Notes: a model not told the origin generated them from the letters alone. DNA of 64,000 bases from Thermoplasmata archaeon (GCA_035504395.1 DATJRX010000032.1:1510-65509); one strand, 5' to 3'. Counted from the stretch's first letter, positions 28,746 to 64,000 are shown. Program-made: numbers and translations.

Positions 28746-30308
28746 ATGCCGGGCGCGACCGCGTTCGTGGGCGGCCGGGTCTTCACGGGCGACCGGCTCT
28801 GCGCCGCCCTGCTGGTGGAGGGCGGGATCGTGTCGGTCGCGGGCTCCGAAGCGGAGGTGCGCCGGGCCGCGCCGACCGGGACCGAGGTCCGCTTGCTCGG
28901 CGGTGCCCTCGTGCTGCCGGGCCTGATCGACGCCCACCTCCATCTGGCCGAGATCACGCGCCGGCGCGACGGGCTGGACCTTTCGGGGGCCGCGTCGCTC
29001 GAGGCGCTCGCGACGATGATCCGAACCTGGGCGGACGCGCATCCGGGTCCTGCCGTCGTGGGCCGCGGGTTCGACCCCGAACGGTGGCCCGGGGCGGCGT
29101 GGCCGACCCGCGAGGACCTCGACCGGATGGCCGGGGGCCGGCCGGTGGTGCTCGTCCATGCGAGCGGCCACGCGTGGGTGGTCGGTTCGCCCGTCCTCGC
29201 CGCAGCCGGGGTCGACCGATCGACGCCCGACCCCCCGAGCGGCCGGTTCGGACGGTCGCCCGACGGCGCGCCCGACGGTCGCGTCCTCGAGGCGGCGATC
29301 CCGTTCCTCGAAGCGCGCCTGCCCGACTGGGAATCGGTCGAGCCCGCGGCGATGCTGCGCACCCTGAGGTCGACGGCGGCCCTGGGCCTCACGACGCTGG
29401 GCGCGATGAGCGTGCGTCCGGACGAGGCCGTGGTGCTCCGTCAGCTCGTCGATTCGGGTGTCTGGCCCGGACGGGTGCGGATCTACCTGCGGGGGGACCG
29501 GTGGCGCGAGTACTTCCGGGATCCCGGGGGGCCGTCGGGGCCTCCCGGGCGGTTCGAGGTCGTCGGGGTGAAAGCGTTCACGGACGGGGCGTTCGGTCCT
29601 CGGACGGCCCTCCTTTCGGAGCCGTACACGGACGCGCCGGACACGACCGGGATCGAGGTCGGAACGAGCGCCGAGCTCACGGCGCTGGTCCGCGAAGCGT
29701 CCCGCGCCGGGCTCGCGCCGGCGCTGCACGCCATCGGCGACCGGGCGGTCCTCCGCGCTCTCGACGTCGTGCGGGGGCTCGTCCGGCCGCGCGGGCGTCC
29801 GCCTCGCATCGAACACGCCGCGCTGACGCCCCCGAGCCTCTGGCCCCGGCTCGACGAGGTCCGGCCGGCGCTCGTGGTGCAGCCCGGGTTCGTCTGGAGC
29901 GACCGCTGGCTGACGGCGCGGCTGGGGGCGGATCGGGCGCGATGGGCCTACGCGTTCCGCTCCCTGCTCGATCGGGGTCACGTGCTCGCCGGCTCGAGCG
30001 ACGCCCCGTACGATCCGATCGACCCGTGGCGAGGGCTTCAGGCGGCGGTGCGGCGGACCGACCCGACGGGCGCCTCGGCGAACCCCGACCCCTCCGAGGC
30101 CGTGGACGCCGCGACCGCCGTGCGGCTCTACACCGTCCACGGGGGTCTCGCCCTCGGCGAGCCCCGCTTGGGCCGCCTCGAACCGGGGTCCGCCGCGGAC
30201 CTCGTCGTCGTCCGCGCCCCGACGCTCGAGGCCGCGATCGCGGCCGGAGCGTCGATCGTGCTCGAGTCGTGGGTCGCGGGCGAACCGATCCGGTCCGACC
30301 CCGCGTAG
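28746..30308 (+). CDS. metal-dependent amidohydrolase (Amidohydro_3 / YtcJ-like)
   Basis: LPGLIDAHLHL metal-binding HxH, HAIGDRAV, and C-terminal GSSDAPYDPIDP. Confidence 0.8.
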   Translation: MPGATAFVGGRVFTGDRLCAALLVEGGIVSVAGSEAEVRRAAPTGTEVRLLGGALVLPGLIDAHLHLAEITRRRDGLDLSGAASLEALATMIRTWADAHPGPAVVGRGFDPERWPGAAWPTREDLDRMAGGRPVVLVHASGHAWVVGSPVLAAAGVDRSTPDPPSGRFGRSPDGAPDGRVLEAAIPFLEARLPDWESVEPAAMLRTLRSTAALGLTTLGAMSVRPDEAVVLRQLVDSGVWPGRVRIYLRGDRWREYFRDPGGPSGPPGRFEVVGVKAFTDGAFGPRTALLSEPYTDAPDTTGIEVGTSAELTALVREASRAGLAPALHAIGDRAVLRALDVVRGLVRPRGRPPRIEHAALTPPSLWPRLDEVRPALVVQPGFVWSDRWLTARLGADRARWAYAFRSLLDRGHVLAGSSDAPYDPIDPWRGLQAAVRRTDPTGASANPDPSEAVDAATAVRLYTVHGGLALGEPRLGRLEPGSAADLVVVRAPTLEAAIAAGASIVLESWVAGEPIRSDPA

Positions 30309-30336
30309 GCTAAGGCGCCGCGCGTCTCGCGGGTCC

Positions 30337-30978
30337 GTGGCCGATCCCCCGCCCGTCCCGACGCTCAAGGAGTTCTCGCCGTCGATGCGGGTCGACGTGC
30401 TCATCTCCGACTGGAGGGCCGGCCTCGACCCGGACAGCTCGGAGGAGGAGAAGGAGCGCCGGCTCTACGGGGAGGCGTGGTCGGCGTACCTCGACGGCGA
30501 CTACGGGTTCGGACTGTGGTGCTGGCACGAGTGCGACCGGCTCACGAGCAACCTCAACGGGAACGTCCGCGAGGTCACCCGGATCCTCGGGCCCGGGCGC
30601 TACTTCGGGTTCTCGCACCGCAAGGCCGTCGCCGAGGCGGTGCCGGTGGAGCGGATCTACCGGCCCCGCAAGGGCGACATGAGCACGCCGAGGACCGACG
30701 CGTTCGTCCTTCCGCACTACCAGGTCCTCTGCGTCTACCTCGTTCGCGCCGGCTCCGGGGACCCCAAGGCGAAGGCGCAGCTCGAGATCGCGCTCCTCGA
30801 GCTCGAGGAGCGACGTCGGGCCGATCCGTTCCTGAAGTACTTCGAGACGTTCCGAGACCTGCTCGCCCGCAGCACGGGTGCGTCCCGGCCCGCGGACCCG
30901 GCGCCGGCGCCCGCGTCCGCCCCGCCCCGCTCGAAGAAACGGGCGCGCTCGCCCTCCCCCTCCGAAGGTTCCGTATAG
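30337..30978 (+). CDS. hypothetical protein (213 aa) with a basic Ser/Pro-rich tail
   Basis: GTG-initiated ORF with balanced, Trp/Tyr/Cys-containing composition (LWCWHECDRL) unlike the artefact ORFs. No motif recognised. Confidence 0.5.
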   Translation: MADPPPVPTLKEFSPSMRVDVLISDWRAGLDPDSSEEEKERRLYGEAWSAYLDGDYGFGLWCWHECDRLTSNLNGNVREVTRILGPGRYFGFSHRKAVAEAVPVERIYRPRKGDMSTPRTDAFVLPHYQVLCVYLVRAGSGDPKAKAQLEIALLELEERRRADPFLKYFETFRDLLARSTGASRPADPAPAPASAPPRSKKRARSPSPSEGSV

Positions 30979-31008
30979 ACGGTCCCCCTCGGCCGAGCCG
31001 GAGGTCCG

Positions 31009-32199
31009 GTGCGCGCGGTCGTGCTCGGGGGCGGCGGCCTGACCGGCCGCTGCTCGGTCCGCGACCTCGCGACCGGCGGGATCTTCGACGAGGTCGTCGC
31101 GGCCGATCTCGACCGGCCCCTCGCGGAGGCCGCCGCGCGGGCCGCGGGCGCGCGCGCCCGCGCCACCGGTCTCGACGTGCGGGACCGGACGGCGCTCGTG
31201 GCCCTCCTCCGGGGCGCCGACGTCGTGGTGAACGCGGTCCAGTACGGGTTCAACCTCACGGTGATGGAGGCCGCCCTCGAGGCGAACGTCCCGTACCTCG
31301 ATTTCGGGGGGCTGTTCCACATGACGCGGCGCCAGCTCGCGCTGGACAGCGCCTTTCGCGGCGCCGGCCTGCTCGCGATCCCCGGCCTGGGCCAGGTCCC
31401 CGGGGTCTCGAACGTCCTCGCCTCGGCGGCGAGCGTCGACCTCGACCGCGTCGACTCGCTGCTCATCCGGGACGGGTGGCGGGACCTCACCGTCGGCGGC
31501 CCCGAGATCGCGTTCACCTGGTCCCCGAGCACCTTCCTGGACGAGATGGTCCTCCCGGCGATGGTGTTCGAAGGGGGCCAGTACCGGGAGTACCCGCCGA
31601 TGAGCGGCGCCGAGGAGTACGACTTCCTGCCCCCGGTGGGCCGGACCCGGGTCTATCGGGTCCTGCACTCCGAGGCGGCCACACTTCCGGAGAGCCTCCG
31701 GGCGAAGGGCCTCGCGCACTGCGAGTGGCGGGAGGGCGGCCCGGGCATGGAAGTGCTCCGGACGATGGCGCTGCTCGGGCTCGCCTCGGAGCGCCCGCTC
31801 GAGGTGCGGGGCGAGCCGGTCGTGCCGAAGGAGTTCACCCTCGCCCTGCTCAAGCGCGAGCGGCTGCTCGGGATCCCCGAGGGGGTCACCGTCACCGACT
31901 GGGAGGTCTGCGACATCGAGGTCCGCGGGTCGAAGGGGGGCGCCACGGTCGTCCGCCACGCCGTGGCCCGGTTCCCGGCGCGGCCCGACTGGCAGTTGAG
32001 CGCCACCGAGTACGCGGTCGGGGTCGCCGGCGCCATCGGGGCCGAGATGATCGCGACGGACCAGGTGAAGGAGGTAGGGGTCGTTCCCCCCGAACGCTGC
32101 ATCCCGGTCGGGCCGTTCCGGGAGGCGCTCGCGCGACGGGGCATCGAGACCGCCATCGTCCCCCCCGAACCCCCGCTCGGACCGCCGCGGGCGGTGTGA
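31009..32199 (+). CDS. saccharopine dehydrogenase-family NAD(P)-binding oxidoreductase
   Basis: N-terminal Rossmann segment MRAVVLGGGGLTGR with the two-domain layout typical of the saccharopine dehydrogenase / homospermidine-synthase-like family. Confidence 0.7.
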   Translation: MRAVVLGGGGLTGRCSVRDLATGGIFDEVVAADLDRPLAEAAARAAGARARATGLDVRDRTALVALLRGADVVVNAVQYGFNLTVMEAALEANVPYLDFGGLFHMTRRQLALDSAFRGAGLLAIPGLGQVPGVSNVLASAASVDLDRVDSLLIRDGWRDLTVGGPEIAFTWSPSTFLDEMVLPAMVFEGGQYREYPPMSGAEEYDFLPPVGRTRVYRVLHSEAATLPESLRAKGLAHCEWREGGPGMEVLRTMALLGLASERPLEVRGEPVVPKEFTLALLKRERLLGIPEGVTVTDWEVCDIEVRGSKGGATVVRHAVARFPARPDWQLSATEYAVGVAGAIGAEMIATDQVKEVGVVPPERCIPVGPFREALARRGIETAIVPPEPPLGPPRAV

Positions 32200-32381: not shown

Positions 32382-34031
32382 ATGGCGGACCTTCCAACCG
32401 CCCCACCACCCACCCTGCCGGCGCGCGACGCCGACGGGACGAAGCGCGGGTCCCCCGTCGAGCGCGCGGTCGGACTGACCGCGGCCGACTCCGACGTCCA
32501 GACCCCTCCGACCCCGACGCCCGAGCCCGCCCACAAGGCCCCTCCCGAGCCGGAGGCCGAGGAGAAGAAGGAGCCGAAGGAGAGCGCGAAGGCGGAGCCA
32601 AAGGCGCCGGAGCCGAGGGCCGAGTCGAAGGGCGAGCCCAAGGAGGCCCCGGCGGCCGAGGTCGAGGCGCTGCCGATCCCGATCGCGCGGCTCGTCCCGA
32701 AGCTGAAGACGAGCGCGAAGCTGTTCGCGGAGGGCAAGAAGTACATCCCGAACTCCTCGAGCTCCCTCATCCGGGTCGCGTCGTACGACCCGTGTCCCCC
32801 GTTCATCGCGGCGGGGAAGGGGGCCCGGATCTGGGACGAGGACGGGAACGAGTACCTGGACTTCAACCTCGCCTACGGCTGCCTCATCAACGGTCACGCT
32901 CCGAAGGAGCAGGTGAAGGCGATCCAGGACCGGGCCGAGCTCGGCCTCCACTTCGCCGCGCCGACCTCGCTCGAGATCGAGGTCGCCAAGATGTTCCGCA
33001 AGATGGTCCCGAACGCGGAGCGCGTCGCGTTCTGCTCGAACGGGACCGACGCGACGCAGAACGCGATCCGGATCGCGCGCGCGGTCACGGGCAAGGACGC
33101 GATCCTGAAGTTCGAGGGCCACTACCACGGGCAGCACGACTACGCGCTGATCAGCGCGGAGGCGCCCCCGATCGTCGCGGGGCTCGACGAGTACCCGCGC
33201 CCGCTCCCGAACTCGGCGGGGATCCCGCCCGGCGTGACCGACTACGTCATGGTCGCGCAGTACAACTCGCTCCCGTCGTTCGAGCGGATGGTCAAGCGCT
33301 ACCGCGACCGGCTCGCGTGCGTGATCTTGGAGCCGGTCATGGCGAACTCGGGGGTGATCCCCCCGGCCCCGGATTACCTGAAGCGGCTGGTCGAGATCGC
33401 GCACCAGAACGAGCTCCTCGTGATCTTCGACGAGGTGTTCACCGGCTTCCGGGTGGCCCCGGGCGGCGCGCAGCAGCTCTACGGGGTCGAGCCGGACATC
33501 TCCTGCTGGGCGAAGGCGCTCGGGGGCGGGGTCACGATCTCGGCGGTCTCGGGCAAGGCCGAGTACATGGACCTGATCGCCCCGGGCCGGATCTCGTTCG
33601 GCGGCACCTACTTCGCGAACAACCTCTCGCTCGCGGGCGCGCTCGCGAACCTGAAGATCCTGCACCGCGGCGGGGAGGACCTCTACGCCCGGTTCGGCCG
33701 GATGACCGAGAAGCTCGAGAAGGGGCTCGAGGAGGCCGCGCGCGACGAGAAGATCTCCGTCGTCGTCCAGTCGGTCAACGGGATGCTGCAGTTCTTCTTC
33801 ACCCGGCGCAAGAAGATCACGAACTACCGCGAGTCGCTCCAGATCGACTGGAACCTGTACCTGCGGCACCACCAGCTCTTGCTGGACAAGGGGATCTACA
33901 TCCACCCCGATAACTACGAGCGGATCACCTTCTCGAGCGCCCACAGCGACAAGGACATCGAGCGGTTCATCGCGGTCACCCACGAGACGTTCCGCGAGCT
34001 GAGGACCCTGCCCCGGGACTATCTCCCGTGA
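32382..34031 (+). CDS. class III PLP aminotransferase of the glutamate-1-semialdehyde aminomutase (HemL)-like branch, with a ~100-aa K/E/P/A-rich N-terminal extension
   Basis: ARIWDEDGNEYLDFNLAYGCLINGH, SNGTDATQNAIRIARAVTGKD, KFEGHYHG, FDEVFTGFR, and the PLP-lysine context WAKALGGG. Confidence 0.8.
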   Translation: MADLPTAPPPTLPARDADGTKRGSPVERAVGLTAADSDVQTPPTPTPEPAHKAPPEPEAEEKKEPKESAKAEPKAPEPRAESKGEPKEAPAAEVEALPIPIARLVPKLKTSAKLFAEGKKYIPNSSSSLIRVASYDPCPPFIAAGKGARIWDEDGNEYLDFNLAYGCLINGHAPKEQVKAIQDRAELGLHFAAPTSLEIEVAKMFRKMVPNAERVAFCSNGTDATQNAIRIARAVTGKDAILKFEGHYHGQHDYALISAEAPPIVAGLDEYPRPLPNSAGIPPGVTDYVMVAQYNSLPSFERMVKRYRDRLACVILEPVMANSGVIPPAPDYLKRLVEIAHQNELLVIFDEVFTGFRVAPGGAQQLYGVEPDISCWAKALGGGVTISAVSGKAEYMDLIAPGRISFGGTYFANNLSLAGALANLKILHRGGEDLYARFGRMTEKLEKGLEEAARDEKISVVVQSVNGMLQFFFTRRKKITNYRESLQIDWNLYLRHHQLLLDKGIYIHPDNYERITFSSAHSDKDIERFIAVTHETFRELRTLPRDYLP

Positions 34032-34138: not shown

Positions 34139-35170
34139 ATGGGCCGTAGCCTGAGCGACCTGTTCGTCTTCGTCGGAAAGCGTCTCCTCCAGCTGATCCC
34201 GGTCCTCCTCGGGGTGATCCTCCTCACCTTCTTCGTCTCGCATCTCCAGCTCTCCGCGAGCACGCTCTGCCACGAGTGGTACTTCCACGCCGGGTCGGGG
34301 ACCTACGCGAACTGCGAGGCGAAGTACGGCCTTCCCCTGAGCACCCAGTTCTGGAACTACCTCGTCAGCCTGGGCCAGGGGAACTGGGGCGCGGCGGTCC
34401 AGGGCGCCTCGGTCTCCACCGCGATCGCCACCCACCTGCCCGCCACGATCGAGCTGGTCCTCGCCGCGCTGTTCCTGATGATCGTTGTCGGGATCCCCCT
34501 CGGGGTCATCGCCGCCCAGTACAGCGGCCGTCTGGGGGACCACCTGGTGCGGCTGTTCTACCTCAGCGGTTGGGCGACGCCGACGTACCTCGGCGCGGTC
34601 ATCGTGGCGATCTTCGTCGGGCCCTGGTTGGGGCTCCCCACGAGCGGGGAGTACTCGACGATCATCGTACCGTTCCCCCAGTACACGCACATGTCGGTGA
34701 TCGACGCGATGATCGCCGGCAACCTCCCGTACACGATCGACGCGATCGACCACCTGATCCTGCCGGCGGCCGTGCTGGCCTTCATCAACATGGGCATCGC
34801 GACGCGGATGACCCGGGCCTCGATGCTCGAGGTACTGCCGCTGGACTACGTCCGCTCGGCCCGGATGAAGGGCCTCACCGAGTTCTGGGTCCTCTACAAG
34901 CACGCGCTCCGCAACGCCCTGATCACCACCACGACCGTCCTCGGGCTCACCGCCGGCGGCCTCCTCGCGGGCACCGTGGTCGTCGAGGAGGTGTTCGACT
35001 GGCCCGGGATCGGCCAGTACGCGTACACGGTCATCGGCGGCGGCGGCTCCGCCCCGAACTTCGACGGGGCGATCGCCGTCGTGGTCGTGTTCGCGATCGC
35101 CGTGGTCGTGGCGAACCTCGCGGCGGACGTCCTCTACGGGCTCCTCGACCCGCGCGTGGATTGGAGATAG
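34139..35170 (+). CDS. ABC transporter permease, PepT (peptide/opine/nickel) family, DppB/OppB-like
   Basis: N-terminus MGRSLSDLFVFVGKRLLQLIPVLLGVILLTFFV and the EAA-like loop YVRSARMKGLTEFWVLYKHALRNA. Confidence 0.9.
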   Translation: MGRSLSDLFVFVGKRLLQLIPVLLGVILLTFFVSHLQLSASTLCHEWYFHAGSGTYANCEAKYGLPLSTQFWNYLVSLGQGNWGAAVQGASVSTAIATHLPATIELVLAALFLMIVVGIPLGVIAAQYSGRLGDHLVRLFYLSGWATPTYLGAVIVAIFVGPWLGLPTSGEYSTIIVPFPQYTHMSVIDAMIAGNLPYTIDAIDHLILPAAVLAFINMGIATRMTRASMLEVLPLDYVRSARMKGLTEFWVLYKHALRNALITTTTVLGLTAGGLLAGTVVVEEVFDWPGIGQYAYTVIGGGGSAPNFDGAIAVVVVFAIAVVVANLAADVLYGLLDPRVDWR

Positions 35171-35174
35171 GCCG

Positions 35175-36230
35175 TTGGCCGCCACGACCCGGACCCCCGC
35201 TCTGGTGCGGCGCGCGGACTCCCGGTTCGGGGTCTTCTGGCGGATCCTGCGGGCGAACCCGCTCTCGCTCATCGGGTTCGTGCTGGTCGTGATCATCGCG
35301 GTCACGGCGGTCATCGTCGTCGTCGCGCCGCGCGTCCTCGTCCCGTACGGACCGCTCCAGCAGACCGCGGACCGCAACGCCGGGCCCTCGTGGGCCCACC
35401 CGTTCGGGACCGACAATCTCGGCCGTGACATCTACTCGAACGTGATGCTCGCGCTGCCCCTCGATCTCGCGATCGGCCTCGCCATCGCCGGGAGCGCCCT
35501 CCTCATCGGCGGCCTCCTCGGCCTCGTGGCGGGATTCTACAACACGCCGGGGACCGTCCTGGGCGGGGTCTCGGTCGTGGTGCTCCGGATCACCGATGTC
35601 TTCCTCTCGTTCCCCAGCCTGATCCTCGCGCTCGCCCTGACCCGGGTCCTGGGGCTCGGCGTCGGCCCGAGCGTGCTCGCGATCACGATCACGTGGTGGC
35701 CGTTCTACGTGCGGCTCGTCCGCGGCGAGGTGCTCGCGGTGAAGCACCTCCCGTACGTGAACGCGGCCCGCGCCGCCGGCGTGACGGAGAACCGGATCCT
35801 CCTGCGGCACGTCCTTCGGAACATCCTCGAACCCGTGATCGTCTACTTCACGCTCGACATCGGGACCGTCCTCGTCACCTACTCGACGATCGGCTACATC
35901 GGGGTCGCGAGCATCTACCCCGGGCCGTCGCCGGAGTGGGGGGCGATGCTCGCCTACTACCAGCAGACCGGCTCGGCGAACATCTACCCGTGGCTGGTCC
36001 TGGCCCCCGGCGGGGCGATCTTCCTCACCGTCTTCGCGTTCAGCCTGCTGGGCGACGGGCTGCGCGACATCCTCGACCCGCGCACGCGACGCGCCTTCGT
36101 CCGCTCGAGCGCGATCCACGAGCCGCCGGCCGAGACGTCGACGGGCCCCGCGGCCGAGCCGACCGGCCCCGAGCCGGACGTCGAGGGCGGGGTCCCGCTG
36201 GCGGCGCGGGAGGCGCACCCGGTCCCGTGA
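35175..36230 (+). CDS. ABC transporter permease, PepT family, DppC/OppC-like
   Basis: GTDNLGRDIYSNV motif, six hydrophobic segments, and YVNAARAAGVTENRILLRHVLRN. Confidence 0.85.
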   Translation: MAATTRTPALVRRADSRFGVFWRILRANPLSLIGFVLVVIIAVTAVIVVVAPRVLVPYGPLQQTADRNAGPSWAHPFGTDNLGRDIYSNVMLALPLDLAIGLAIAGSALLIGGLLGLVAGFYNTPGTVLGGVSVVVLRITDVFLSFPSLILALALTRVLGLGVGPSVLAITITWWPFYVRLVRGEVLAVKHLPYVNAARAAGVTENRILLRHVLRNILEPVIVYFTLDIGTVLVTYSTIGYIGVASIYPGPSPEWGAMLAYYQQTGSANIYPWLVLAPGGAIFLTVFAFSLLGDGLRDILDPRTRRAFVRSSAIHEPPAETSTGPAAEPTGPEPDVEGGVPLAAREAHPVP

Positions 36231-54481: not shown

Positions 54482-54659
54482 TCCTGCGCGCGCGGGCCCG
54501 CGGGCCGGCGAGGCGCTGACGGTCGGGGGCCACCGGACGGCCATCGAACCGCGCCCCGCGCGGTGAGATGTTCGCCGAAGCGGGCGATCGATGGAAAACC
54601 GTCCAGCGGCGCGCCCGGCCCCGATTTCTCCTCCGTCGACCTCGAGCGGCGAGCGGTGC

Positions 54660-55199
54660 ATGCCCCCATCGATCCGTCCCGCCGAGCTTGCCGACCTCCC
54701 GGCGATCGTCGAGCTGTACAACCACTACGTCCGGTCGACGGCCGCGACGTTCGAGATCGCGGAAGTTCGTCCCGAGGACAAGTCCGGGTGGTTCCACGAG
54801 CACGGCGCGTCCGGCCCGCATCGGATGCTGGTCGCGGTAGATGCCGCCGGCGGGGTGATCGGGTGGGCGACGACGAGCCCGTTCCGCCCGCGGGCCGCCT
54901 ATCGGACGACCGTCGAGTCGTCGATCTACCTCCACCCCGTGGCGGTGGGCCGGGGCGTGGGTTCGCAGCTCTACGGCGCGCTCTTCGACTCGATCCGGAA
55001 CGAGGACCTCGAGCGGATCGTCGCGGGGATCTCCCTTCCGAACCCGGGTTCGGTCGCGCTCCACCGCCGGTTCGGCTTCCAGCCGGTCGGGGTGTTCACG
55101 CGCGTGGGGCGGAAGTTCGATCGGTACTGGGACGTGGCGTGGTTCGAGCGACCCTTGCGCCTGCCGGCCCCGGCGCCTCCGCGGGCGCCTACGCCGTAG
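54660..55199 (+). CDS. GNAT acetyltransferase, phosphinothricin / L-amino-acid N-acetyltransferase (PAT/YncA)-like
   Basis: IRPAELADLPAIVELYNHYVRSTAATFE, VGRGVGSQLY, and FGFQPVGVFTRVGRKFDRYWDVAWFE are PAT-family hallmarks. ATG at 54660; the ORF extends to 54591. Confidence 0.8.
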   Translation: MPPSIRPAELADLPAIVELYNHYVRSTAATFEIAEVRPEDKSGWFHEHGASGPHRMLVAVDAAGGVIGWATTSPFRPRAAYRTTVESSIYLHPVAVGRGVGSQLYGALFDSIRNEDLERIVAGISLPNPGSVALHRRFGFQPVGVFTRVGRKFDRYWDVAWFERPLRLPAPAPPRAPTP

Positions 55200-57453: not shown

Positions 57454-57786
57454 TCATCCCGTGACCCGCTCGGGCGGTGCGAAGACGACGAGCAGCACAA
57501 GCTCCTCGGTGATCGAGTGGAACCGGTGCGGGACGTGGGCGGGAACGAACAGCACCTCCCCGGGCTTGGCCTCGGAGTCGACGCTGCCGTGCGTGAGCCG
57601 TCCGCGGCCCCGGACGACGTAGTAGATCTCGTCCTCGGAGTGGGGGGACTGGCGGTCGATCGCGCCCGGGGCGAGGACGTACACCCCGACGCTCATCGTC
57701 GGAACGCGCAGGAACTCCCGCCAGTCGCCCGGGTTCTGCTTGGCCCGCTCGGCCTCCTCCTCGATCGCCGTCATCGCCGTCCGCAC
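57454..57786 (-). CDS. cupin-domain protein (cupin_2-like), ~110 aa
   Basis: PHSEDEIYYVVRGRG...GEVLFVPAHVPHRF matches the two-motif cupin core G(X)5HxH...G(X)5PxG(X)2H in divergent form. The start is GTG 57786 or ATG 57774. Confidence 0.75.
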   Translation of the reverse strand: MRTAMTAIEEEAERAKQNPGDWREFLRVPTMSVGVYVLAPGAIDRQSPHSEDEIYYVVRGRGRLTHGSVDSEAKPGEVLFVPAHVPHRFHSITEELVLLVVFAPPERVTG

Positions 57787-57799: not shown

Positions 57800-59152
57800 T
57801 TAACCGCCCGGGGCCCCGGCGTCGAGCGCGAGCACCTCCTCGGCCGCGCGGACCCCGGTCTCGATCGCGCCGGCGACGGTCGCCGAGAGCCCCCGCGTCT
57901 CGGTCGCCTCGCCCGCGAAGAAGAGGCGGTCCCCGACCGGGGCCGCGAGCGCGGCGCGGTCGGAGAGGCGCGCCCCGACCGGGAGGAACGAGTAGGCGCC
58001 CCGCGCGAAGGGATCGTTCGACCACCGGTGGACGCGGGCCCCCTCCACCGTCCCGAGGGAGATGCCGGGCGGGAGCAGGGAGTCCCACTCCTGGACGGTC
58101 GCCGCGACGAGATCGGCGTCGCTCAGGTCGGCCCGGCGCCGCGCCTCTCGCCCCACCGTGAAGGCCGTCACGATCTCGATCGGCTCGCCGAGGCCGACGC
58201 GCGGGCGGAGGAAGGTCGAGGCGGTCCCTCCCCAGACGAGGGCGAACTCGCCGAGGCGCGCGCGGGCGGTCCCGCCGCGCAGCCGCAGCGAGACCGCGTA
58301 GCCGTCGGCGAAGGCGATGCGGGCGATCGCCGCCCGCTTCGCCTCGGGAAGGGGAGGATCGAAGACGATCGCCCCGGAGCGCAGCACGCCGAGCGGCACG
58401 GTGACGATCGCGCGCGGCGCCCGGTAGATGCGGTCGGGCCCATCGACGGGGTGGACCGTGACCGCGACGCCCGCGGCGGTCCCGCGGACCTCGGTCACGG
58501 GGGTCCCGAGCCGCACGCGGTCCCCGAGCGCCGCCGCCTCCCGCTCCGCGAGGGTCGAGTACCCCTCCACGACCCGGAAGTTCCGGAAGCCGAAGGGCTC
58601 CGGCGCCCGGCGGTCCTCCTCCCCGGGGCCGAGGATCCCGATCGCATCCGCGTCGGCCGCGTAGGTGTGGGCGTGCAGGAGCTCGACGAGCAGGCGGGCC
58701 GCCGGAGCGGGTCGCGCCTCGTCGAGGAAGTCGGCGATCGACCGGTCCGGCGGCCCGAGCGCCTGCAACCGGCCCGGGATCCCGCGGAGCCCCGCGTACG
58801 TCGCCCGGGTCCCCGCGGCGGGGTGGAACGGCAGCGCGAACCACGGATAGCGCGCGATCCGGCCCCGGACCACGAGCCGGCTCCGCTGGGTGAGCGGGAG
58901 CGGCGCGGCCGTGAGCCCCCGGCGCGCGAGCCACGCGTGCGTGACGACGTGCCGGCCGTGCACCATCTGGGCGCCGAGCTCGAGCGGGACGCCGGCGAGC
59001 GTGCGGTCCGTCAGGACCCGGCCCCCCACCCGGTTCCGGGCCTCCAGGACGAGCACACGGCGCCCGGCCTCGGTCAGGCGGTGGGCTGCGGCGAGACCGG
59101 CGAACCCGGCCCCGACGACGAGAACGTCGACCTCGGAGTCTCCGCTCGCCAT
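57800..59152 (-). CDS. flavin-containing amine oxidase (polyamine / monoamine oxidase-like)
   Basis: DVLVVGAGFAGLAAAHRLTEAGRRVLVLEARNRVGGRV N-terminal FAD fold and C-terminal LFFAGEATE motif. Confidence 0.85.
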   Translation of the reverse strand: MASGDSEVDVLVVGAGFAGLAAAHRLTEAGRRVLVLEARNRVGGRVLTDRTLAGVPLELGAQMVHGRHVVTHAWLARRGLTAAPLPLTQRSRLVVRGRIARYPWFALPFHPAAGTRATYAGLRGIPGRLQALGPPDRSIADFLDEARPAPAARLLVELLHAHTYAADADAIGILGPGEEDRRAPEPFGFRNFRVVEGYSTLAEREAAALGDRVRLGTPVTEVRGTAAGVAVTVHPVDGPDRIYRAPRAIVTVPLGVLRSGAIVFDPPLPEAKRAAIARIAFADGYAVSLRLRGGTARARLGEFALVWGGTASTFLRPRVGLGEPIEIVTAFTVGREARRRADLSDADLVAATVQEWDSLLPPGISLGTVEGARVHRWSNDPFARGAYSFLPVGARLSDRAALAAPVGDRLFFAGEATETRGLSATVAGAIETGVRAAEEVLALDAGAPGG

Positions 59153-59161: not shown

Positions 59162-60178
59162 TCACGTCCCGGGCTCGTCCGAGCGCTCGACGGGGATCGG
59201 GGCCGGGACCGCCACCCGCTCGCGGGCGAAGGCACGGCGGGTCCGGGGATCGAGCACGTCCCGCAGCCCGTCGCCCAGCAGGGAGAATCCGAGCACCGTG
59301 ACGAAGATCGCGAGCCCGGGCGCGAGCACGAGGTACAGGTACTGCGGCAGGTACCCCTGGTACTCGAAGACCATGCTGCCCCACTCGGGCGTCGTCGCCG
59401 GCAGGGAGATCCCGAAGTACGAGATCGTGGAGAACGTCACGAGGACGGTCCCGACGTCCAGGGTCGCGTACACGGTCAGCGGTTCGAGCAGGTTGCGGAC
59501 CACGTGCCGCAGCAGGATCCGCGACTCCGACGCCCCCGCGATGCGGGCCGCCGGGATGTAGCCCTGGTGCTTGATCGTGAGCACCTCGCCGCGGACGAGC
59601 CGGACGTAGTACGGCCACCAGGTGATGATCAGGGCCGCGAGCGTGGCGGTGAGATTGCGTCCGAGGATCGCCGCGAGCGCGAACGCGAGCACGAGGGTCG
59701 GGAAGGCGAGGAAGACGTCGGTGACCCGGAGGATGAAGCCGGCGAGCGGCCGGCTGAAGCGGCCCGAGTCCCAGAAGCCGGAGACGAGGCCGAGCCCGCC
59801 GCCGATGATCAGCGCCGCTCCGACGATCGCGAAGCCGATGAAGAGGTCGAGCGGGAGCGCGGCGAGCACCCGGGAGAAGACGTCACGGCCGAGGTTGTCG
59901 GTGCCGAACCAGTGCTGCCAGCTCGGGCCCTGGAGCAGGGTGGGCGAGAGCGCGTTCGGGTCGTAGGGCAGCAGCGAGACCGCGCGCCCGATGAGCGCCT
60001 TCGAGACGAGCGGCACGAGCTCGACGGCCGCCGCCAGGACCACGGTGACGAGGACCAGGAAGAAGCCCGCCGCGGTAAGCCGGTTCGCCCGGAGCGTCCG
60101 GACCGCCTCCCCGAGCGTGTCCCGCCGTCGGATCGTGCCGGCCATCGGCGCCGGAGGGGAGGGACGCGACGCGGCCAT
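59162..60178 (-). CDS. ABC transporter permease, DppC/OppC-like (paralog of 35175-36230)
   Basis: GTDNLGRDVFSRV, IPAARIAGASESRILLRHVVRN. The start is immediately adjacent to the upstream stop. Confidence 0.85.
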   Translation of the reverse strand: MAASRPSPPAPMAGTIRRRDTLGEAVRTLRANRLTAAGFFLVLVTVVLAAAVELVPLVSKALIGRAVSLLPYDPNALSPTLLQGPSWQHWFGTDNLGRDVFSRVLAALPLDLFIGFAIVGAALIIGGGLGLVSGFWDSGRFSRPLAGFILRVTDVFLAFPTLVLAFALAAILGRNLTATLAALIITWWPYYVRLVRGEVLTIKHQGYIPAARIAGASESRILLRHVVRNLLEPLTVYATLDVGTVLVTFSTISYFGISLPATTPEWGSMVFEYQGYLPQYLYLVLAPGLAIFVTVLGFSLLGDGLRDVLDPRTRRAFARERVAVPAPIPVERSDEPGT

Positions 60179-61198
60179 CTAGCGCCAGTCCACCCGCGGG
60201 TCGATGAGGCCGTACAGGATGTCCGCGATCAGGTTCGCGATCACGACGGCGATCGCGAACACGATCACGATCGCGATGGTGCCCGCGAAGTTGTAGCCGA
60301 CGACCGCGTCGTACGAGTACTCCCCGATGCCGGGCCAGCGGAACACCTCCTCGATGACGATCGTGCCCGACAGCAGCCCGCTCGCCGTGAAGCCGAGCAC
60401 GGTGGTCGTCGTGATCAGGGAATTGCGGAGCACGTGGCGGAGGACCACGGTGCCCTCGTTGAGGCCCTTCATCCGGGCGCTCTTCACGAAGTCCATCGGG
60501 AGGACCTCGAGCATCGAGCTGCGCGTCATCCGGGTGATGATGCCGAGGTTGAGGAACGCGAGGGCCGTCGCCGGGAGGATGAGGTGCTCGATCGCGTTGA
60601 CGGTGTACGGTAGATTGCCGGCTAACAGGGCGTCGAGGACCGACATGTGGGTCGGTTGCGGGAACGGCGGTGGATTCACGGAGAAGTCGCCCCCCGTGGG
60701 GAGCCCGACCACGGGACCGATCACGAACGCGAGGAGGACGGCGGCCAGGTACGTCGGCGCCGCCCAACCGCTCAGGTAGAACAACCGGACGAGGTGGTCC
60801 GGCCACCGGCCAGCCCACCGGGCCGCCACGACCCCCAGGAGGATGCCGAACACGATCATGATGAGGAGCGCCGCGAGCACGAGCTCGACGGTCTCGGGGA
60901 GGGCCGCCGCGATCACCGGGTAGACCGGCACCCCGTTCTGGTCGGTCCCCCAGTTGCCCTGCGCGAGCTGGACGACGTACTTCTCGAACTGGATCCAGAT
61001 CGGTTGATTGAATCCGAAGAACTGGCGGCACGCGGCGATGACGTCCGGCTTCGCGTGGGGGTACCACGCGGGACACGGGTCCGAGATGATGACGTGCGTC
61101 AGGAGGAACGTGAGGAGGATGACGCCCAGGAGGACCGGGACGAGCTCGGCGAGGCGGACCCCGATGAAGTAGGCCAGGTCGGAGAGGCTCCGCCCCAT
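60179..61198 (-). CDS. ABC transporter permease, DppB/OppB-like (paralog of 34139-35170)
   Basis: MGRSLSDLAYFIGVRLAELVPVLLGVILLTFLL and FVKSARMKGLNEGTVVLRHVLRNS. Confidence 0.9.
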   Translation of the reverse strand: MGRSLSDLAYFIGVRLAELVPVLLGVILLTFLLTHVIISDPCPAWYPHAKPDVIAACRQFFGFNQPIWIQFEKYVVQLAQGNWGTDQNGVPVYPVIAAALPETVELVLAALLIMIVFGILLGVVAARWAGRWPDHLVRLFYLSGWAAPTYLAAVLLAFVIGPVVGLPTGGDFSVNPPPFPQPTHMSVLDALLAGNLPYTVNAIEHLILPATALAFLNLGIITRMTRSSMLEVLPMDFVKSARMKGLNEGTVVLRHVLRNSLITTTTVLGFTASGLLSGTIVIEEVFRWPGIGEYSYDAVVGYNFAGTIAIVIVFAIAVVIANLIADILYGLIDPRVDWR

Positions 61199-61305: not shown

Positions 61306-61746
61306 TTACGCCGGGGGCGTCGCGTCGAGCTTTGCGGCGAGGTTCCTCGCGAACTCCTCCGCGTCGGGCCCGACGCGCTTCGCGAGATACGAGTCGATCA
61401 CGGCGCGCAGGGCCCCCGTGCCGGTCATGGTGAGGGTCAGGGTCACGTCGGTCGCGTCCGGCGGCGCCGCGACGAACGCGAGCCGGCCCTCGATCGTCGC
61501 CTCGGGTCCGCGGGCGCGGAACCGGACGCCCGCCTCGCTCCCCTCGAGGAGTTCGCCCTGGTAGAGGCTCTTCCTCGAGATCGGTCCCAGCTTGATCGCC
61601 ACGGTCCAGATGGCGGTCCGCTCGCCGGTCCGCTCGACCCCGACGACCTGGGGGATCAGCGCGGCGACGAACGTCGGGTCCGAGAGGGACCGGTGCAGGG
61701 CCTCCGGAGCCGCCGGCGCCCGGAAGCGGACCGTGGACTCGGGCAC
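61306..61746 (-). CDS. SRPBCC-superfamily protein (CoxG / carbon monoxide dehydrogenase subunit G-like)
   Basis: Size (146 aa) and pattern (..FVAALIPQVVGVE...WTVAIKLGPISRK...) fit CoxG-type SRPBCC. It starts 4 nt after the stop of the upstream oxidoreductase. Confidence 0.6.
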   Translation of the reverse strand: MPESTVRFRAPAAPEALHRSLSDPTFVAALIPQVVGVERTGERTAIWTVAIKLGPISRKSLYQGELLEGSEAGVRFRARGPEATIEGRLAFVAAPPDATDVTLTLTMTGTGALRAVIDSYLAKRVGPDAEEFARNLAAKLDATPPA

Positions 61747-61750: not shown

Positions 61751-63307
61751 CTACGTCCCCGCGTTGGCCGCGTGAAGGTCGGCGAGGACGACGCCGGCGG
61801 CGTTGTGGCCGGGGGCGCCGATCACGCCGCCGCCCGGATGGGTCGCGCAGCCGCAGAGGTAGAGGCCCGGGACCGGGGTCCGGTAGTTCGACCAGCCCGG
61901 CATCGGCCGCAGGCTGAAGATCTGGTCGGGCGTGATGTCGCCCTGGTCGATGTTCCCGCCGGTCATCCCCAGCGTGCGCTCGATGTCGAGCGGCGTCACG
62001 ACCTGCCAGTGGCGCACGAGCGCCCGGATCCCGGGCGCGTACTCCTCGATCGTCGAGAGGACGGTCTCCGCGACCGCCTCGCGCGCGTCGTCCCAGGCGC
62101 CGCCGCGCAGCTCGGTCGGCGCGTACTGGACGAAGCAGGTCATCGTGTGCTTCCCGGCGGGGGCGACGCTGGGGTCGACGAGGCTCTGGAAGTAGATGTC
62201 GATCGAGGGCGCCCGGGAGAACTGACCGAACTTCGCGTCGTCGAACGCCCGCTCGATGTACTCCATGCTGGGGCAGATGTCGACCGCCCCGACCAGGTGC
62301 CTCGGGTCCGGATCCGCCGTGAACGTCGGCACGCCGTCGAGCGCGGCGTTGAACTTGAGGCAGGCTCCGCGCGATCGGATGCGATGGACCCGGGACTCGA
62401 TCGCCCCGTCGAGCGTACCCCGCGGGAGCAGCTTCAGCAGGGTGTTCGGCGCGTCGGCGTTCGAGACCACGGCCCGCGCCCGGATCGTCTCGCCCGCGTC
62501 AGTGACGATCCCGACCGCGCGGCCGTGCTCGACGACGACCTCCCGCACCCCGACCCCAGTCCGGATCGTCGCCCCGGCGTCGGTCGCCGAACGCGCCATC
62601 GACTCGGTGATCCGTCCCATGCCGCCGCGCGAGTGGCCCCAGACGCGGCGGTGCTCCCCGATCCGCCCGATGTTGTGGTGACCCAGGATGTACGCCGTGC
62701 CGGGAGTGTACGGTCCGGCGAACGTGCCGATCGTCGCTCCCGCCGCGAGCGCGCCCTTGAGCTCGGGGCTCTCGAACCAGTCGTCGAGGAAGTCCCGGGC
62801 GCTGCGGAGGAAGAGGTCGCGCAGCATCGGCTCCGCCTCCCCGGCGGGCAGGGAGCCGATGAACCGGTCGAGCGGCATCGGCGGCGCCATCATCGCCGGT
62901 TCGATCACGTCGAGCGCGTGGTCCCAGAACCGCAGGTACTCGGGGTAGGCGCGGGCGTCGGCGGCCGAGAACTTCGCGATCTCGCGCTGGTCGTGCCGCT
63001 CGTCCAGCCAGAACCTGAGCGATCGACCGTCGGGCTGCGGGAGGAACGCCTGCGGGTCCGGGAGGATCGGATCGTAGCCGTACCGGACCAGGTCGAGCTC
63101 CTCCACGATCTGGGGCCGGAGGAGCCCGCTCGCGTACGCGAACGTGTTGATGCGGAACCCCGGCCACGGCTCCTCGGTGATGCACGCGCCCCCGACCTGG
63201 GGACGTCGCTCGAGAACGCAGACCCGCGCGCCCGCGCGGGCGAGATAGGCGGCGGCGATGAGGCCGTTGTGCCCGGCCCCGATGACGACGGCGTCGAACT
63301 CCGCCAT
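61751..63307 (-). CDS. NAD(P)/FAD-dependent oxidoreductase of the phytoene desaturase (CrtI)-like family
   Basis: FDAVVIGAGHNGLIAAAYLARAGARVCVLERRPQVGGA and C-terminal GLYLCGCATHPGGGVIGAPG. Confidence 0.85.
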   Translation of the reverse strand: MAEFDAVVIGAGHNGLIAAAYLARAGARVCVLERRPQVGGACITEEPWPGFRINTFAYASGLLRPQIVEELDLVRYGYDPILPDPQAFLPQPDGRSLRFWLDERHDQREIAKFSAADARAYPEYLRFWDHALDVIEPAMMAPPMPLDRFIGSLPAGEAEPMLRDLFLRSARDFLDDWFESPELKGALAAGATIGTFAGPYTPGTAYILGHHNIGRIGEHRRVWGHSRGGMGRITESMARSATDAGATIRTGVGVREVVVEHGRAVGIVTDAGETIRARAVVSNADAPNTLLKLLPRGTLDGAIESRVHRIRSRGACLKFNAALDGVPTFTADPDPRHLVGAVDICPSMEYIERAFDDAKFGQFSRAPSIDIYFQSLVDPSVAPAGKHTMTCFVQYAPTELRGGAWDDAREAVAETVLSTIEEYAPGIRALVRHWQVVTPLDIERTLGMTGGNIDQGDITPDQIFSLRPMPGWSNYRTPVPGLYLCGCATHPGGGVIGAPGHNAAGVVLADLHAANAGT

Positions 63308-63330: not shown

Positions 63331-63338
63331 GATAAACT
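63331..63338 (-). promoter_or_regulatory. TATA-box-like element for the CrtI-like gene
   Basis: The minus strand reads AGTTTATC. TTTATC ends 23 nt upstream of the ATG at 63307. Confidence 0.4.
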
Positions 63339-63357
63339 CCTCGACGCGCACGATCTC

Positions 63358-63420
63358 CCTCGAGGAGAATCGAAGCCGGGGGTCGTCCAAAGGGTTAAGG
63401 AAGCGACCCCCTCCTCGAGG
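63358..63420. repeat. nested inverted repeat in the divergent promoter region between the CrtI-like and Rieske genes
   Basis: CCTCGAGGAG (63358-63367) pairs with CTCCTCGAGG (63411-63420), and GGGGGTCG (63378-63385) pairs with CGACCCCC (63404-63411). The repeat encloses the AT-rich GGGTTAAGGAAG. Confidence 0.5.
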
Positions 63421-63436
63421 TCAATCGAGGTGGGAC

Positions 63437-64000
63437 ATGGCCGGGCCGGCGACGCGAGGGACCCGGGGAGGGCTCGGTCCCGTACCCGCGGCCGCGTTGC
63501 GGACCGTCAACCGACCGCTTGACCGCGCGCGCACCCTGCCCGGCCGGCTGTTCAGCGATCCGACCGTCTATGACCTCGAGACCGACCGACTGTTCCGTCG
63601 GAGCTGGCAGTGCATCGGCCGCGAGGACGAACTGGTCCGGCCCGGTGCCTTCCGCAGCTTCGAGGTCGGCGGGTCGGGCGTGGTCGTGGTGCGAGACGAG
63701 ACCGGGACCCTCCGCGCGTTCCACAACGTCTGCCGGCACCGAGGGACGCGCCTCGTGGAGGCCCCCGAGGGCCAGGGGCTCACGAAGCTGGTCTGTCCGT
63801 ACCACGCGTGGACCTACCGGCTCGACGGTCGCCTGATCGGCACACCCCACATGGCCGAAGCGAAGGAGTTCGATCGGGCCGACTTCGGACTTCATCCGGT
63901 CGCGACCGAGGTCTGGCGGGGGTTCGTCTTCGTGAACCTCGACCCGAAGGCGCGGCCGCTGGCGGAGACGCTCGGGGGCCTGCTGCGTCGGGCGGCCCCG
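63437..64000 (+). CDS. Rieske [2Fe-2S] non-heme iron oxygenase, alpha subunit (N-terminal part; 3' end outside window)
   Basis: CRHRG...CPYHAW Rieske motif inside SWQCIGREDEL...VVVVRDETGTLRAFHNVCRHRGTRL...LVCPYHAWTYRLDGRL. The frame is open from the ATG at 63437 to the window end. Confidence 0.85.
   Translation, partial: MAGPATRGTRGGLGPVPAAALRTVNRPLDRARTLPGRLFSDPTVYDLETDRLFRRSWQCIGREDELVRPGAFRSFEVGGSGVVVVRDETGTLRAFHNVCRHRGTRLVEAPEGQGLTKLVCPYHAWTYRLDGRLIGTPHMAEAKEFDRADFGLHPVATEVWRGFVFVNLDPKARPLAETLGGLLRRAAP

Follow-up and report, generated by a model that had tools for sequence, protein, structure and literature searches.

What is the function of a region of about 43 kb in which an archaeon of acid soils carries two peptide-type importers and about 25 enzymes for nitrogen compounds? 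We address this question for a stretch of 64,000 nucleotides (the window) that covers positions 1510-65509 of contig C32 (DATJRX010000032.1; 77,692 bp) of a Thermoplasmata assembly (GCA_035504395.1); coordinates on this contig are given in window numbering, and genes are named by their first coordinate where a name is needed (Table 1). A preliminary description of the window, made from the bare sequence, had read positions 28,746 to 64,000 as one island of amine and omega-amino-acid catabolism and had listed class-III aminotransferases, aldehyde dehydrogenases (ALDHs), two amidohydrolases, a saccharopine-dehydrogenase-family (SacDH-like) enzyme, a flavin amine oxidase, a CrtI-like flavoprotein, a Rieske oxygenase, two GNATs and two PepT-type importers. 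With Pfam and NCBIfam models we find every listed gene at or near the place given for it, one of the two GNAT genes being frameshifted. The enzyme families also fit the proposed catabolic logic; the single island, however, resolves into two units. We read the region as a locus for the import and breakdown of nitrogen compounds, made of two paralogous units each built around an importer, and we put the probability that it degrades amines at roughly 0.6. Family-level gene identities, intact catalytic motifs, paralogy, conserved gene order and recurrence across domains are the observations from which this reading is drawn.

The host is an uncultured acid-soil Thermoplasmata archaeon of the UBA184 group, which from our reading of the names we take to be the published order Lutacidiplasmatales. 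Members of that order are widespread in acidic soils and peat and uncultured; the paper that describes them reports only a peptide/nickel ATP-binding cassette (ABC) system and amino-acid degradation genes, and the words polyamine, aminotransferase, amine oxidase and betaine are unused in it (PMC9287336). A search of full-text literature for the gene combination and for archaeal polyamine catabolism returned no description of this cluster.

The source assembly is metagenome-derived (1.78 Mb in 80 contigs, 71.6% GC, 90.5% estimated completeness, no rRNA gene assembled). Genes are called by third-position GC and frame; a plain list of open reading frames is mostly noise at 73% GC. The called genes are scanned against Pfam and NCBIfam, and the family cut-offs quoted below are the curated thresholds of the models. 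Whole-genome family counts come from tblastn searches of the region's proteins against the complete 1.78-Mb assembly, and P values for enrichment are binomial estimates.

Two importer-centred units

The region runs about 8 kb past the end of the window on contig C32, and we take its right-hand end to lie at about 72.1 kb. Between 28.7 and 72.1 kb, 2.4% of the genome, lie five of the nine class-III aminotransferase loci of the genome (P ~1e-6) and three of its six ALDH loci (P ~3e-4), together with both family-5 binding proteins (2/2), both Rieske alpha subunits (2/2), both CrtI-like flavoproteins (2/2) and the one flavin amine oxidase (1/1). The aminotransferase and ALDH paralogs are only 27-38% identical to one another and are therefore not recent tandem copies. 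Their active sites appear intact: the Asp and Lys that bind pyridoxal phosphate (PLP) are kept in all five class-III aminotransferases, and the catalytic Cys is kept in the ALDHs.

The region consists of two units, Unit 1 at 28.7-48.7 kb and Unit 2 at 53-72 kb, each centred on its own importer. Both importers are complete, with an SBP_bac_5 binding protein, two BPD_transp_1 permeases and two ABC_tran ATPases that carry oligo_HPY, and between the units the permeases are 54-63%, the ATPases 63-73% and the binding proteins 47% identical. Each importer has its own SacDH-like gene and its own GSAM-like aminotransferase (32% identical in both cases); further paralog pairs are formed by the CrtI-like proteins (62%) and the Rieske proteins (43%). 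GC content ranges from 0.67 to 0.76 along the region, compared with 0.716 genome-wide, and with values this near to that of the genome we rule out a compositionally foreign island. No integrase or transposase is found among the called genes of the region. A test by distribution for a horizontally acquired island gives a patchy Unit 2 and a Unit 1 that is near-universal in the genus.

A conserved core and an accessory unit

Gene order in Unit 1 is kept in five relatives from the genus at 56-89% amino-acid identity: three of them (G095, G128, G275) retain it from glnA to the omega-aminotransferase, and two (G012, G174) are colinear as far as their contigs reach. The shared order begins with glnA, the Amidohydro_3 gene, an orphan gene, the SacDH-like gene, the GSAM-like aminotransferase, two permeases, two ATPases and, on the minus strand, the binding protein, and continues with two ALDHs, the GabT-like aminotransferase (minus strand), Amidohydro_2, (a small gene) and the omega-aminotransferase. 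One relative, G095, goes on into a methylmalonate-semialdehyde dehydrogenase (minus strand), a second GSAM-like aminotransferase, an amine oxidase (minus strand) and a Rieske gene. Across the genus, Amidohydro_3 is present in 47 of the 50 genomes searched, one copy each, and ALDH 40554 in 40 of the 50 (74-87% identity). The two share a contig in 16 genomes and lie 11.6-12.2 kb apart in 14, compared with 11.8 kb in the window; each of the nine Amidohydro_3 loci inspected keeps at least one of the two flanks, glnA on the upstream side and the orphan and SacDH-like genes on the downstream side. In several well-assembled genomes (G002, G005 and G011 among them) the ALDH block lies on another contig, so that linkage is common, not universal. 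The preliminary description had named orthologs scattered among relatives as an outcome that would speak against a catabolic cluster; the orthologs are clustered.

The genes of Unit 2 are distributed differently. The amine oxidase occurs in 5 of 24 genomes searched in the genus and in 0 of 16 outside it, and a class-wide sample of 201 genomes has the CrtI-like gene in 10. We recovered 18 Thermoplasmata loci with a CrtI-like gene, some of them cut by contig ends, and at all 18 Unit 2 is whole or almost whole. At these 18 loci the CrtI-like gene is accompanied by the binding protein in 18, both Rieske genes in 17, the permeases in 15, the ortholog of aminotransferase 69133 in 15, the ortholog of SacDH-like 68042 in 14, the ATPases in 9, the amine oxidase in 7, the SRPBCC protein in 7-9 and the ALDH pair in 6-9. 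Never within 10 kb of the core at these loci are glnA, lrp, Amidohydro_3, the orphan gene, either GNAT or GH15, and the methyltransferase and the orthologs of semialdehyde dehydrogenase 50650 and omega-aminotransferase 47383 are likewise absent near it. Unit 1 is thus a core possession of the genus, and Unit 2 an accessory one, patchy yet internally cohesive.

The best evidence that the two units act on related chemistry comes from a relative (G011) that joins parts of both in one compact cluster with a single importer. Its genes run in the order Amidohydro_2, GabT-like aminotransferase, ALDH, ALDH, two ATPases, GSAM-like aminotransferase (86% identical), amine oxidase, two permeases, SRPBCC, CrtI-like gene, two Rieske genes, binding protein and SacDH-like gene.

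Recurrence in bacteria

The same set of genes recurs outside the archaea. In Actinomycetota a CrtI-like gene (~40% identical) lies near a Rieske gene at 12 of 20 loci and has a GSAM-like aminotransferase nearby at 10 of 20. One such locus, in a metagenome-assembled Mycolicibacterium sp. (L055; NZ_JAEMSG010000002.1, 2221-16511), combines a Rieske alpha subunit, a GSAM-like aminotransferase and a CrtI-like flavoprotein with a Pot-type importer (SBP_bac_8 and a TOBE_2 ATPase), a BetI-type TetR repressor, a DAO-family flavoprotein, an ADP-forming CoA ligase and an acyl-CoA dehydrogenase; we found no description of this cluster. The nearest non-archaeal CrtI-like homologs, those of Acidobacteriota (46-52% identity), are without the partner genes.

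Two further clusters lie on plasmids. On a plasmid of Fuscovulum ytuae YMD61 (NZ_CP124537.1, QF092_RS19755-RS19820) the run starts with TetR, a class-III aminotransferase and two NAD(P)/FAD oxidoreductases, continues with an aminomethyltransferase-family (GcvT-like) protein and two ring-hydroxylating dioxygenase alpha subunits, and ends with a polyamine ABC binding protein, an ATPase, two permeases, a DMSP-lyase-family cupin, an amidohydrolase and a methyltransferase. Compared with the archaeal proteins, the GSAM-like aminotransferase is 33% identical, the two CrtI-like proteins 46% and 34%, the two Rieske proteins 35% and 31%, and Amidohydro_3 27%. A smaller version on a plasmid of Rhizobium sp. 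SL42 (NZ_CP063398.1, IM739_RS21770-RS21820) has TetR, two CrtI-like genes, a GcvT-like protein, an ABC importer, one Rieske gene and a class-III aminotransferase that is nearest to omega-aminotransferase 47383. No publication on either plasmid cluster was found. Folate proteins of the GcvT type go together with oxidative N-demethylases, for example the oxidases of dimethylglycine and sarcosine, and finding them in the bacterial clusters favours a methylated amine as substrate. We tentatively suggest, at somewhat less than even odds, that the shared set (two CrtI-like genes, two Rieske genes, GSAM-like aminotransferase, cupin, Amidohydro_3 and importer) may be one undescribed pathway for N-methylated or quaternary amines, found in Thermoplasmata, in Actinomycetota and on plasmids of Alphaproteobacteria, and that in the archaeal version a peptide-type importer may have been swapped in and SacDH-like enzymes added.

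Recurrence also bears on the simplest alternative, namely that unrelated housekeeping paralogs have come to lie side by side without any common pathway. Some features of the region would suit such a chance neighbourhood: bystanders are present (GH15, the broken GNAT and glnA itself), and at least five transcription directions are found with no dedicated regulator in the region. Nevertheless, we regard this explanation as scarcely credible, given that the enrichment has P ~1e-6, that gene order and spacing are kept across many genomes, and that the gene set is found in three phyla of two domains.

A candidate route through Unit 1

From the families present we infer substrates, the order of reactions and a link to nitrogen assimilation as follows. 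In Unit 1 the Opp/Dpp-type ABC importer would bring in an amino compound, which the Amidohydro_3, SacDH-like and GSAM-like enzymes may turn into an amino-aldehyde. ALDH 40554 would oxidise this to an omega-amino acid, most plausibly 4-aminobutanal to gamma-aminobutyrate (GABA), after which the GabT-like aminotransferase 43546 and then ALDH 42055 would carry GABA through succinate semialdehyde to succinate. In a putative C3 branch, omega-aminotransferase 47383 and dehydrogenase 50650 might convert beta-alanine or beta-aminoisobutyrate to acetyl-CoA or propionyl-CoA. The fixed place of the locus next to lrp-glnA hints that nitrogen set free in breakdown is assimilated, and that the locus may be controlled by nitrogen status.

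The predicted conversion of 4-aminobutanal to GABA and succinate by 40554, 43546 and 42055 is, as judged by family resemblance, the best-supported sub-route, and its three genes are contiguous and conserved in many genomes. ALDH 40554 is matched best by PRK13473, the model for aminobutyraldehyde dehydrogenase, at 580.7 bits, just under the cut-off of 615, with betaine-aldehyde dehydrogenase next; TIGR03374 gives 444.9 (cut-off 909). Aminotransferase 43546 has E. coli GabT as its top match in the PDB (1sf2, 4e-81), followed by PuuE, and misses the cut-off of the GabT model TIGR00700 (330.8 against 506.65 bits). ALDH 42055 reaches 469 of 650 bits with the lactaldehyde model NF040648 and 395.1 of 646 bits with the succinate-semialdehyde model TIGR01780. 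For aminotransferase 47383 the PDB matches are taurine:2-oxoglutarate aminotransferase (6jix, 3e-77), omega-transaminases and polyamine:pyruvate transaminase (9j4z). The MmsA-type assignment of ALDH 50650 in the preliminary description is borne out, with the TIGR01722 cut-off passed; a catalytic-Cys motif, GERCLA, lies at residue 281, and the gene holds the same position in G095. The polyamine that the same description had put forward among the possible substrates is not supported: no gene singles it out, and the ABALDH, GabT, succinate-semialdehyde dehydrogenase and polyamine oxidase models all score below cut-off.

The first steps of Unit 1 are held by less familiar proteins. SacDH-like 31009 passes the cut-offs of both Sacchrp_dh_NADP and Sacchrp_dh_C; its top PDB match is carboxyspermidine dehydrogenase (8deb, 4e-18), and saccharopine dehydrogenases are also among the closest. 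These closest relatives make or break a secondary amine. The Amidohydro_3 protein has only uncharacterised archaeal hydrolases (3icj, 3igh) as PDB relatives, and for the Amidohydro_2 protein the sole PDB relative is the uncharacterised 3irs. Binding protein 38453 has only distant family matches, to NikA and GsiB, and the PDB matches of the binding proteins (HbpA, GsiB, NikA) are all distant.

These proteins leave room for a different route, in which the locus imports peptides and breaks down lysine, ornithine or arginine: Amidohydro_3 would be a dipeptidase, the SacDH-like proteins would be lysine 6-dehydrogenases, the aminotransferases and ALDHs would degrade the three amino acids, GABA arising from them, and the Rieske and flavin genes would have an unrelated side function. 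We consider this route unlikely, if the most serious of the alternatives. The importer does belong to the peptide/nickel family, 'lysine 6-dehydrogenase' is the name given automatically by JGI to SacDH-like homologs, and a model of an Xaa-Pro dipeptidase faintly matches the N-terminus of the Amidohydro_3 protein. The ALDHs point elsewhere, however: the model for piperideine-6-carboxylate dehydrogenase is not among the 25 best matches of ALDH 40554, the one for glutamate-semialdehyde dehydrogenase lies far below the aminobutyraldehyde model, and ALDH 42055 scores highest with succinate-semialdehyde and lactaldehyde models. The Rieske, CrtI-like and amine oxidase genes, moreover, are interleaved with importer genes and travel with these in 18 loci, and the bacterial versions of the enzyme set are paired with Pot-type amine importers and not with peptide ones.

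Unit 2 and a proposed oxidation of N-alkylated amines

Returning to amine breakdown, Unit 2 is probably a toolkit for breaking the C-N bonds of N-alkylated amines, most likely N-methylated or quaternary ones. Its Rieske oxygenases would attack the imported amine by hydroxylating next to the nitrogen, as CntA, Stc2 and GbcA do; the amine oxidase and the CrtI-like flavoproteins would oxidise the products further, and the resulting aldehydes and amines may feed the enzymes of Unit 1. In both units the SacDH-like enzymes would cleave secondary amines with NAD(P)+, while primary amines would be transaminated and aldehydes oxidised. Methylated substrates, rather than plain polyamines, are indicated for Unit 2 because the Rieske proteins resemble betaine, carnitine and stachydrine oxygenases and because the bacterial clusters carry a GcvT-like protein.

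Both Rieske paralogs have intact CxH-x17-CxxH and ExxHxxxxH motifs. Their best NCBIfam model is that of GbcA (NF058607), at 201 and 197 bits against a cut-off of 670 and with the N-terminal half only aligned, and their top PDB matches are 3vca/4QUP and carnitine monooxygenase CntA (6y8j). Of these entries 3VCA carries the name of a ring-hydroxylating dioxygenase and 4QUP that of a demethylase; both represent the stachydrine demethylase Stc2. Amine oxidase 57800 has the FAD-binding GxGxxG motif (GAGFAG, residue 14) and matches LSD2, nicotine-type amine oxidases, monoamine oxidase and polyamine oxidase alike (1e-22 to 1e-28). CrtI-like protein 61751 falls far from carotenoid models (CrtO, 302 against 1000 bits; crtI_fam, 140 against 238 bits), and its homologs in a large protein database are named only 'phytoene dehydrogenase-like'.

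SacDH-like enzymes, aminotransferases and an importer of this type could also serve synthesis: the locus might make and recover a nitrogen-rich metabolite (a polyamine, an opine-type metallophore or a compatible solute), with the SacDH-like enzymes condensing reductively, the aminotransferases making precursors and a Nik/Cnt-like importer retrieving the product. The SacDH-like proteins are indeed nearest carboxyspermidine dehydrogenase, the binding proteins faintly match NikA and the staphylopine-binding CntA, and GSAM-like aminotransferases occur in biosynthetic pathways, with 4zm3 and 6k8h, both biosynthetic enzymes, as PDB neighbours here. We nevertheless hold biosynthesis to be very improbable. 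No nicotianamine-synthase-like gene, decarboxylase or exporter is found in the region, and three ALDHs, one of them a CoA-acylating semialdehyde dehydrogenase, are hallmarks of catabolism; the carboxynorspermidine synthase/dehydrogenase-type model NF043000 gives just 48.8 bits for 31009 and 94.2 bits for 68042 against a cut-off of 800, and the bacterial counterparts come with TetR/BetI-type repressors and amine importers.

The GSAM-like aminotransferases

The preliminary description had allowed that its HemL-like aminotransferases might be genuine HemL of tetrapyrrole synthesis. The HemL model TIGR00713 (cut-off 527.3 bits) is reached by no copy in the genome; its best match, at 502.8 bits, is C39:9641-10900, compared with 392.8 bits for 32382 and 316.8 bits for 53051. 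On contig C39 this gene follows a hemA-like gene (5118-6146) and hemB (7918-8862), and it is clearly the candidate HemL. Since the best match lies in this hemA-hemB-hemL cluster elsewhere in the genome and scores higher, we reject genuine HemL for the two GSAM-like genes of the region. The hemA-like gene on C39 itself scores just 103 bits against a 210-bit cut-off.

Aminotransferase 32382 has an N-terminal extension of ~100 residues (32382-32720), and the ATG at 32382 is its sole in-frame start codon. A separate contig of 4,111 bp (C41) carries the 3' end of an Amidohydro_3 gene followed by the orphan, SacDH-like and GSAM-like run at 77-90% nucleotide identity to 29.9-34.0 kb; its aminotransferase aligns from residue 1, so that the extension seems conserved. 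As Amidohydro_3 is single-copy in every relative searched, C41 may stem from a co-binned related strain and not from a true duplication.

In aminotransferase 53051, 89 in-frame codons precede the first ATG, GTG or TTG, and they are conserved in the orthologs (L097 in G128, L095 in G095, L018 in G020, and L030). The ortholog in G128 has no canonical start at all, the only nearby one in G095 is a GTG within the conserved stretch, and in G020 and L030 an in-frame GTG lies right before the conserved GDGxLDP. The gene and its four orthologs share the string GGAGATGGGA, with an ATG one base out of frame and then a conserved in-frame CTG. Because the upstream codons are conserved in all five, an assembly error is not the cause; a non-canonical start (CTG after GGAG) or a frameshift is possible.

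Points against amine degradation

Several observations weigh against the proposal that the region degrades amines. Only methylmalonate-semialdehyde dehydrogenase and glutamine synthetase reach a substrate-specific curated cut-off. The importer is of the peptide/nickel family and not of the Pot family, the importers known for polyamines, and its binding proteins are unlike any with known ligand. Dehydrogenase 50650 could serve valine breakdown, and no ortholog of it is found near the core at the 18 related loci. A frameshift interrupts one GNAT, and a canonical start codon is missing from one aminotransferase. The archaeal clusters have no GcvT-like protein of their own, and the only GCV_T gene of the genome is on contig C28. 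Finally, no reductase or ferredoxin partner for the Rieske proteins is present among the genes called at 25.7-73.5 kb; the rest of the genome was not searched.

Features of the region and its flanks

Table 1. Called genes of the two units, the stretch between them and both flanks, in window numbering (window end, 64000)
Feature	Coordinates	Strand	Family evidence and remarks
Lrp/AsnC regulator	26592-27083	-	HTH_AsnC-type, AsnC_trans_reg; divergent from glnA; sole regulator gene adjoining the region
glnA, type I glutamine synthetase	27203-28666	+	TIGR00653, 534.6 vs 429 bits; left neighbour of Unit 1
Amidohydro_3 metal hydrolase	28746-30308	+	PF07969, 254 bits; first gene of Unit 1
Orphan conserved protein	30337-30978	+	No Pfam or NCBIfam match; new to the list
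SacDH-like oxidoreductase	31009-32199	+	PF03435, PF16653
GSAM-like class-III aminotransferase	32382-34031	+	PF00202; PLP-binding Asp and Lys present
Two Opp/Dpp-type permeases, first importer	34139-35170, 35175-36230	+	BPD_transp_1, OppC_N
Two Opp/Dpp-type ATPases, first importer	36227-37393, 37390-38475	+	ABC_tran, oligo_HPY; GC frame analysis, translations, start codons
Family-5 substrate-binding protein	38453-40414	-	SBP_bac_5; convergent with ATPase genes; same position in relatives
ALDH	40554-42047	+	Nearest aminobutyraldehyde and betaine-aldehyde dehydrogenases; ELGGK and catalytic Cys
ALDH	42055-43542	+	Resembles lactaldehyde and succinate-semialdehyde dehydrogenases; catalytic Cys
GabT-like class-III aminotransferase	43546-45051	-	PLP-binding Lys and Asp
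GNAT acetyltransferase	~45144-45703	+	PF00583; split by a frameshift near 45250
Amidohydro_2 hydrolase	45755-46663	+	PF04909, 135.9 bits; syntenic in relatives
Small protein	46679-47323	+	No family match; 45%-identical counterpart at the same place in G275; new to the list
Omega-aminotransferase	47383-48726	+	Last gene of colinear Unit 1; 85-87% identical in relatives
GH15 glycoside hydrolase	48723-50588	-	PF00723, TREH_N; new to the list
CoA-acylating methylmalonate/malonate-semialdehyde dehydrogenase	50650-52098	-	TIGR01722, 565.7 vs 448.5 bits, cut-off passed
Class I methyltransferase	52158-52997	-	Methyltransf_11, Methyltransf_25; new to the list
Second GSAM-like aminotransferase	53051-54481	+	PF00202; first canonical start at 53318
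GNAT, phosphinothricin/ArsN1-type-like	54591-55199	+	NF040504, 141 vs 210 bits
Two Opp/Dpp-type ATPases, second importer	55189-56262, 56259-57425	-	ABC_tran, oligo_HPY; translations, start codons
Small cupin	57454-57786	-	Cupin_2, 6e-15; faint DMSP_lyase match, E 0.001; new to the list
Flavin amine oxidase	57800-59152	-	PF01593, 189.8 bits; between ATPase and permease genes
Two permeases, second importer	59162-61198	-	BPD_transp_1
SRPBCC / Polyketide_cyc2-fold small protein	61306-61746	-	PF10604; new to the list
CrtI-like NAD(P)/FAD oxidoreductase	61751-63307	-	PF01593; 62%-identical paralog at 70509-72065
Rieske oxygenase alpha subunit	63437-64606	+	Cut by window end at 64000; full on contig
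Second Rieske gene	64611-65837	-	Beyond window
Second family-5 binding protein	65949-67892		Beyond window; 4.7 kb from permeases of second importer
Second SacDH-like gene	68042-69136		Beyond window
Fifth class-III aminotransferase	69133-70473	-	Beyond window
Second CrtI-like gene	70509-72065	-	Beyond window
DUF981 membrane protein	72649-73521		Next gene after the region

Genes marked as new to the list in Table 1 lie inside the window and had not been named in the preliminary description. At the left flank, glnA is the single glutamine synthetase homolog in the assembly. We also considered it as a PuuA-type gamma-glutamylpolyamine synthetase, and reject this because the type I cut-off is passed and the genome has no other homolog of the family; for the same two reasons we regard glnA as a housekeeping enzyme.

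The orphan gene 30337 sits between the Amidohydro_3 and SacDH-like genes in relatives too, and its product is 68-88% identical there, compared with 54-63% for the neighbouring Amidohydro_3 protein. It has 626 homologs, all unnamed, and every organism label given is Thermoplasmata. An AlphaFold2 model from a 25-sequence alignment is all-helical and of low confidence (pLDDT 66, pTM 0.49).

The frameshift in GNAT 45144 is seen in alignment with the ortholog in G003, which runs across two frames (..LRDGR.A.VR.. and then ..AEEVYVM..), and no GNAT lies between the GabT-like gene and Amidohydro_2 in G095, G128 or G275. GH15 is missing from the corresponding site in G095 and G128 and is not found near the core elsewhere, as noted above; we consider it a bystander, present here as an insertion in this genome. 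In G020 the counterpart of methyltransferase 52158 adjoins the ortholog of aminotransferase 53051.

Significance

An investment of 20-40 kb in amine uptake and C-N cleavage, conserved and placed beside glutamine synthetase, suggests that scavenging of organic nitrogen may be a central trait of this group, which would be relevant to nitrogen turnover in acid soils. The region also brings together families without an assigned reaction: the CrtI-like and SacDH-like proteins, the orphan helical protein and archaeal Amidohydro_3. Since a similar gene set is carried on plasmids of cultured, genetically tractable bacteria, its function can be tested directly. The consequences may extend further: human levels of trimethylamine and dimethylamine are associated with variation at the PYROXD2 locus (PMC3169529), and if the CrtI-like proteins correspond in prokaryotes to PYROXD2, an orphan human flavoprotein, the pathway, if true, would suggest a reaction for that enzyme.

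Comparison with known systems

Bacterial routes for putrescine and GABA include PatA-PatD(YdcW)-GabT/PuuE-GabD of E. coli and the Spu pathway of Pseudomonas. Like these, the region has neighbouring genes for an aminoaldehyde-dehydrogenase-like ALDH, a GabT-like aminotransferase and another ALDH of semialdehyde type, and its omega-aminotransferases are related to SpuC and to polyamine:pyruvate transaminase. Unlike them, it is without the gamma-glutamyl branch of PuuA and PuuD, its importer is of the Opp/Dpp type and not of the Pot or PuuP type, its scores with the family models of these routes are all below cut-off, and its route would begin with SacDH-like, GSAM-like and Amidohydro_3 enzymes, all foreign to those pathways.

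The Opp/Dpp/Nik ABC importers form the PepT family (TC 3.A.1.5). The region has their full complement twice over, namely a binding protein, two permeases (one with OppC_N) and two oligo_HPY ATPases, but differs from them in that amine oxidase and cupin genes lie between permease and ATPase genes and that the binding-protein genes are on the opposite strand or several kb off, their products being distant from solved structures.

The archaeal Rieske paralogs, in which the motifs for the Rieske cluster and the mononuclear iron are intact, have Stc2 (3VCA/4QUP), CntA (6Y8J) and GbcA as their best matches in the PDB and NCBIfam. In contrast to the CntA and GbcA systems, no reductase of the CntB or GbcB type adjoins the archaeal genes, and unlike all three, these form a divergent or convergent pair beside CrtI-like flavoproteins.

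A further parallel is with the Fuscovulum and Rhizobium plasmids. These differ from the archaeal region in having a Pot/polyamine-type importer, a GcvT-like aminomethyltransferase and TetR, and the stretches presented here are without SacDH-like genes, flavin amine oxidase or an ALDH pair. Both nevertheless share with it two CrtI-like oxidoreductases (43-46% and 30-34% identical), a Rieske gene and a class-III aminotransferase, and Fuscovulum matches the archaeal region further in holding a second Rieske gene (31-35%), a GSAM-like aminotransferase, a cupin, Amidohydro_3, a methyltransferase and an ABC importer in one block.

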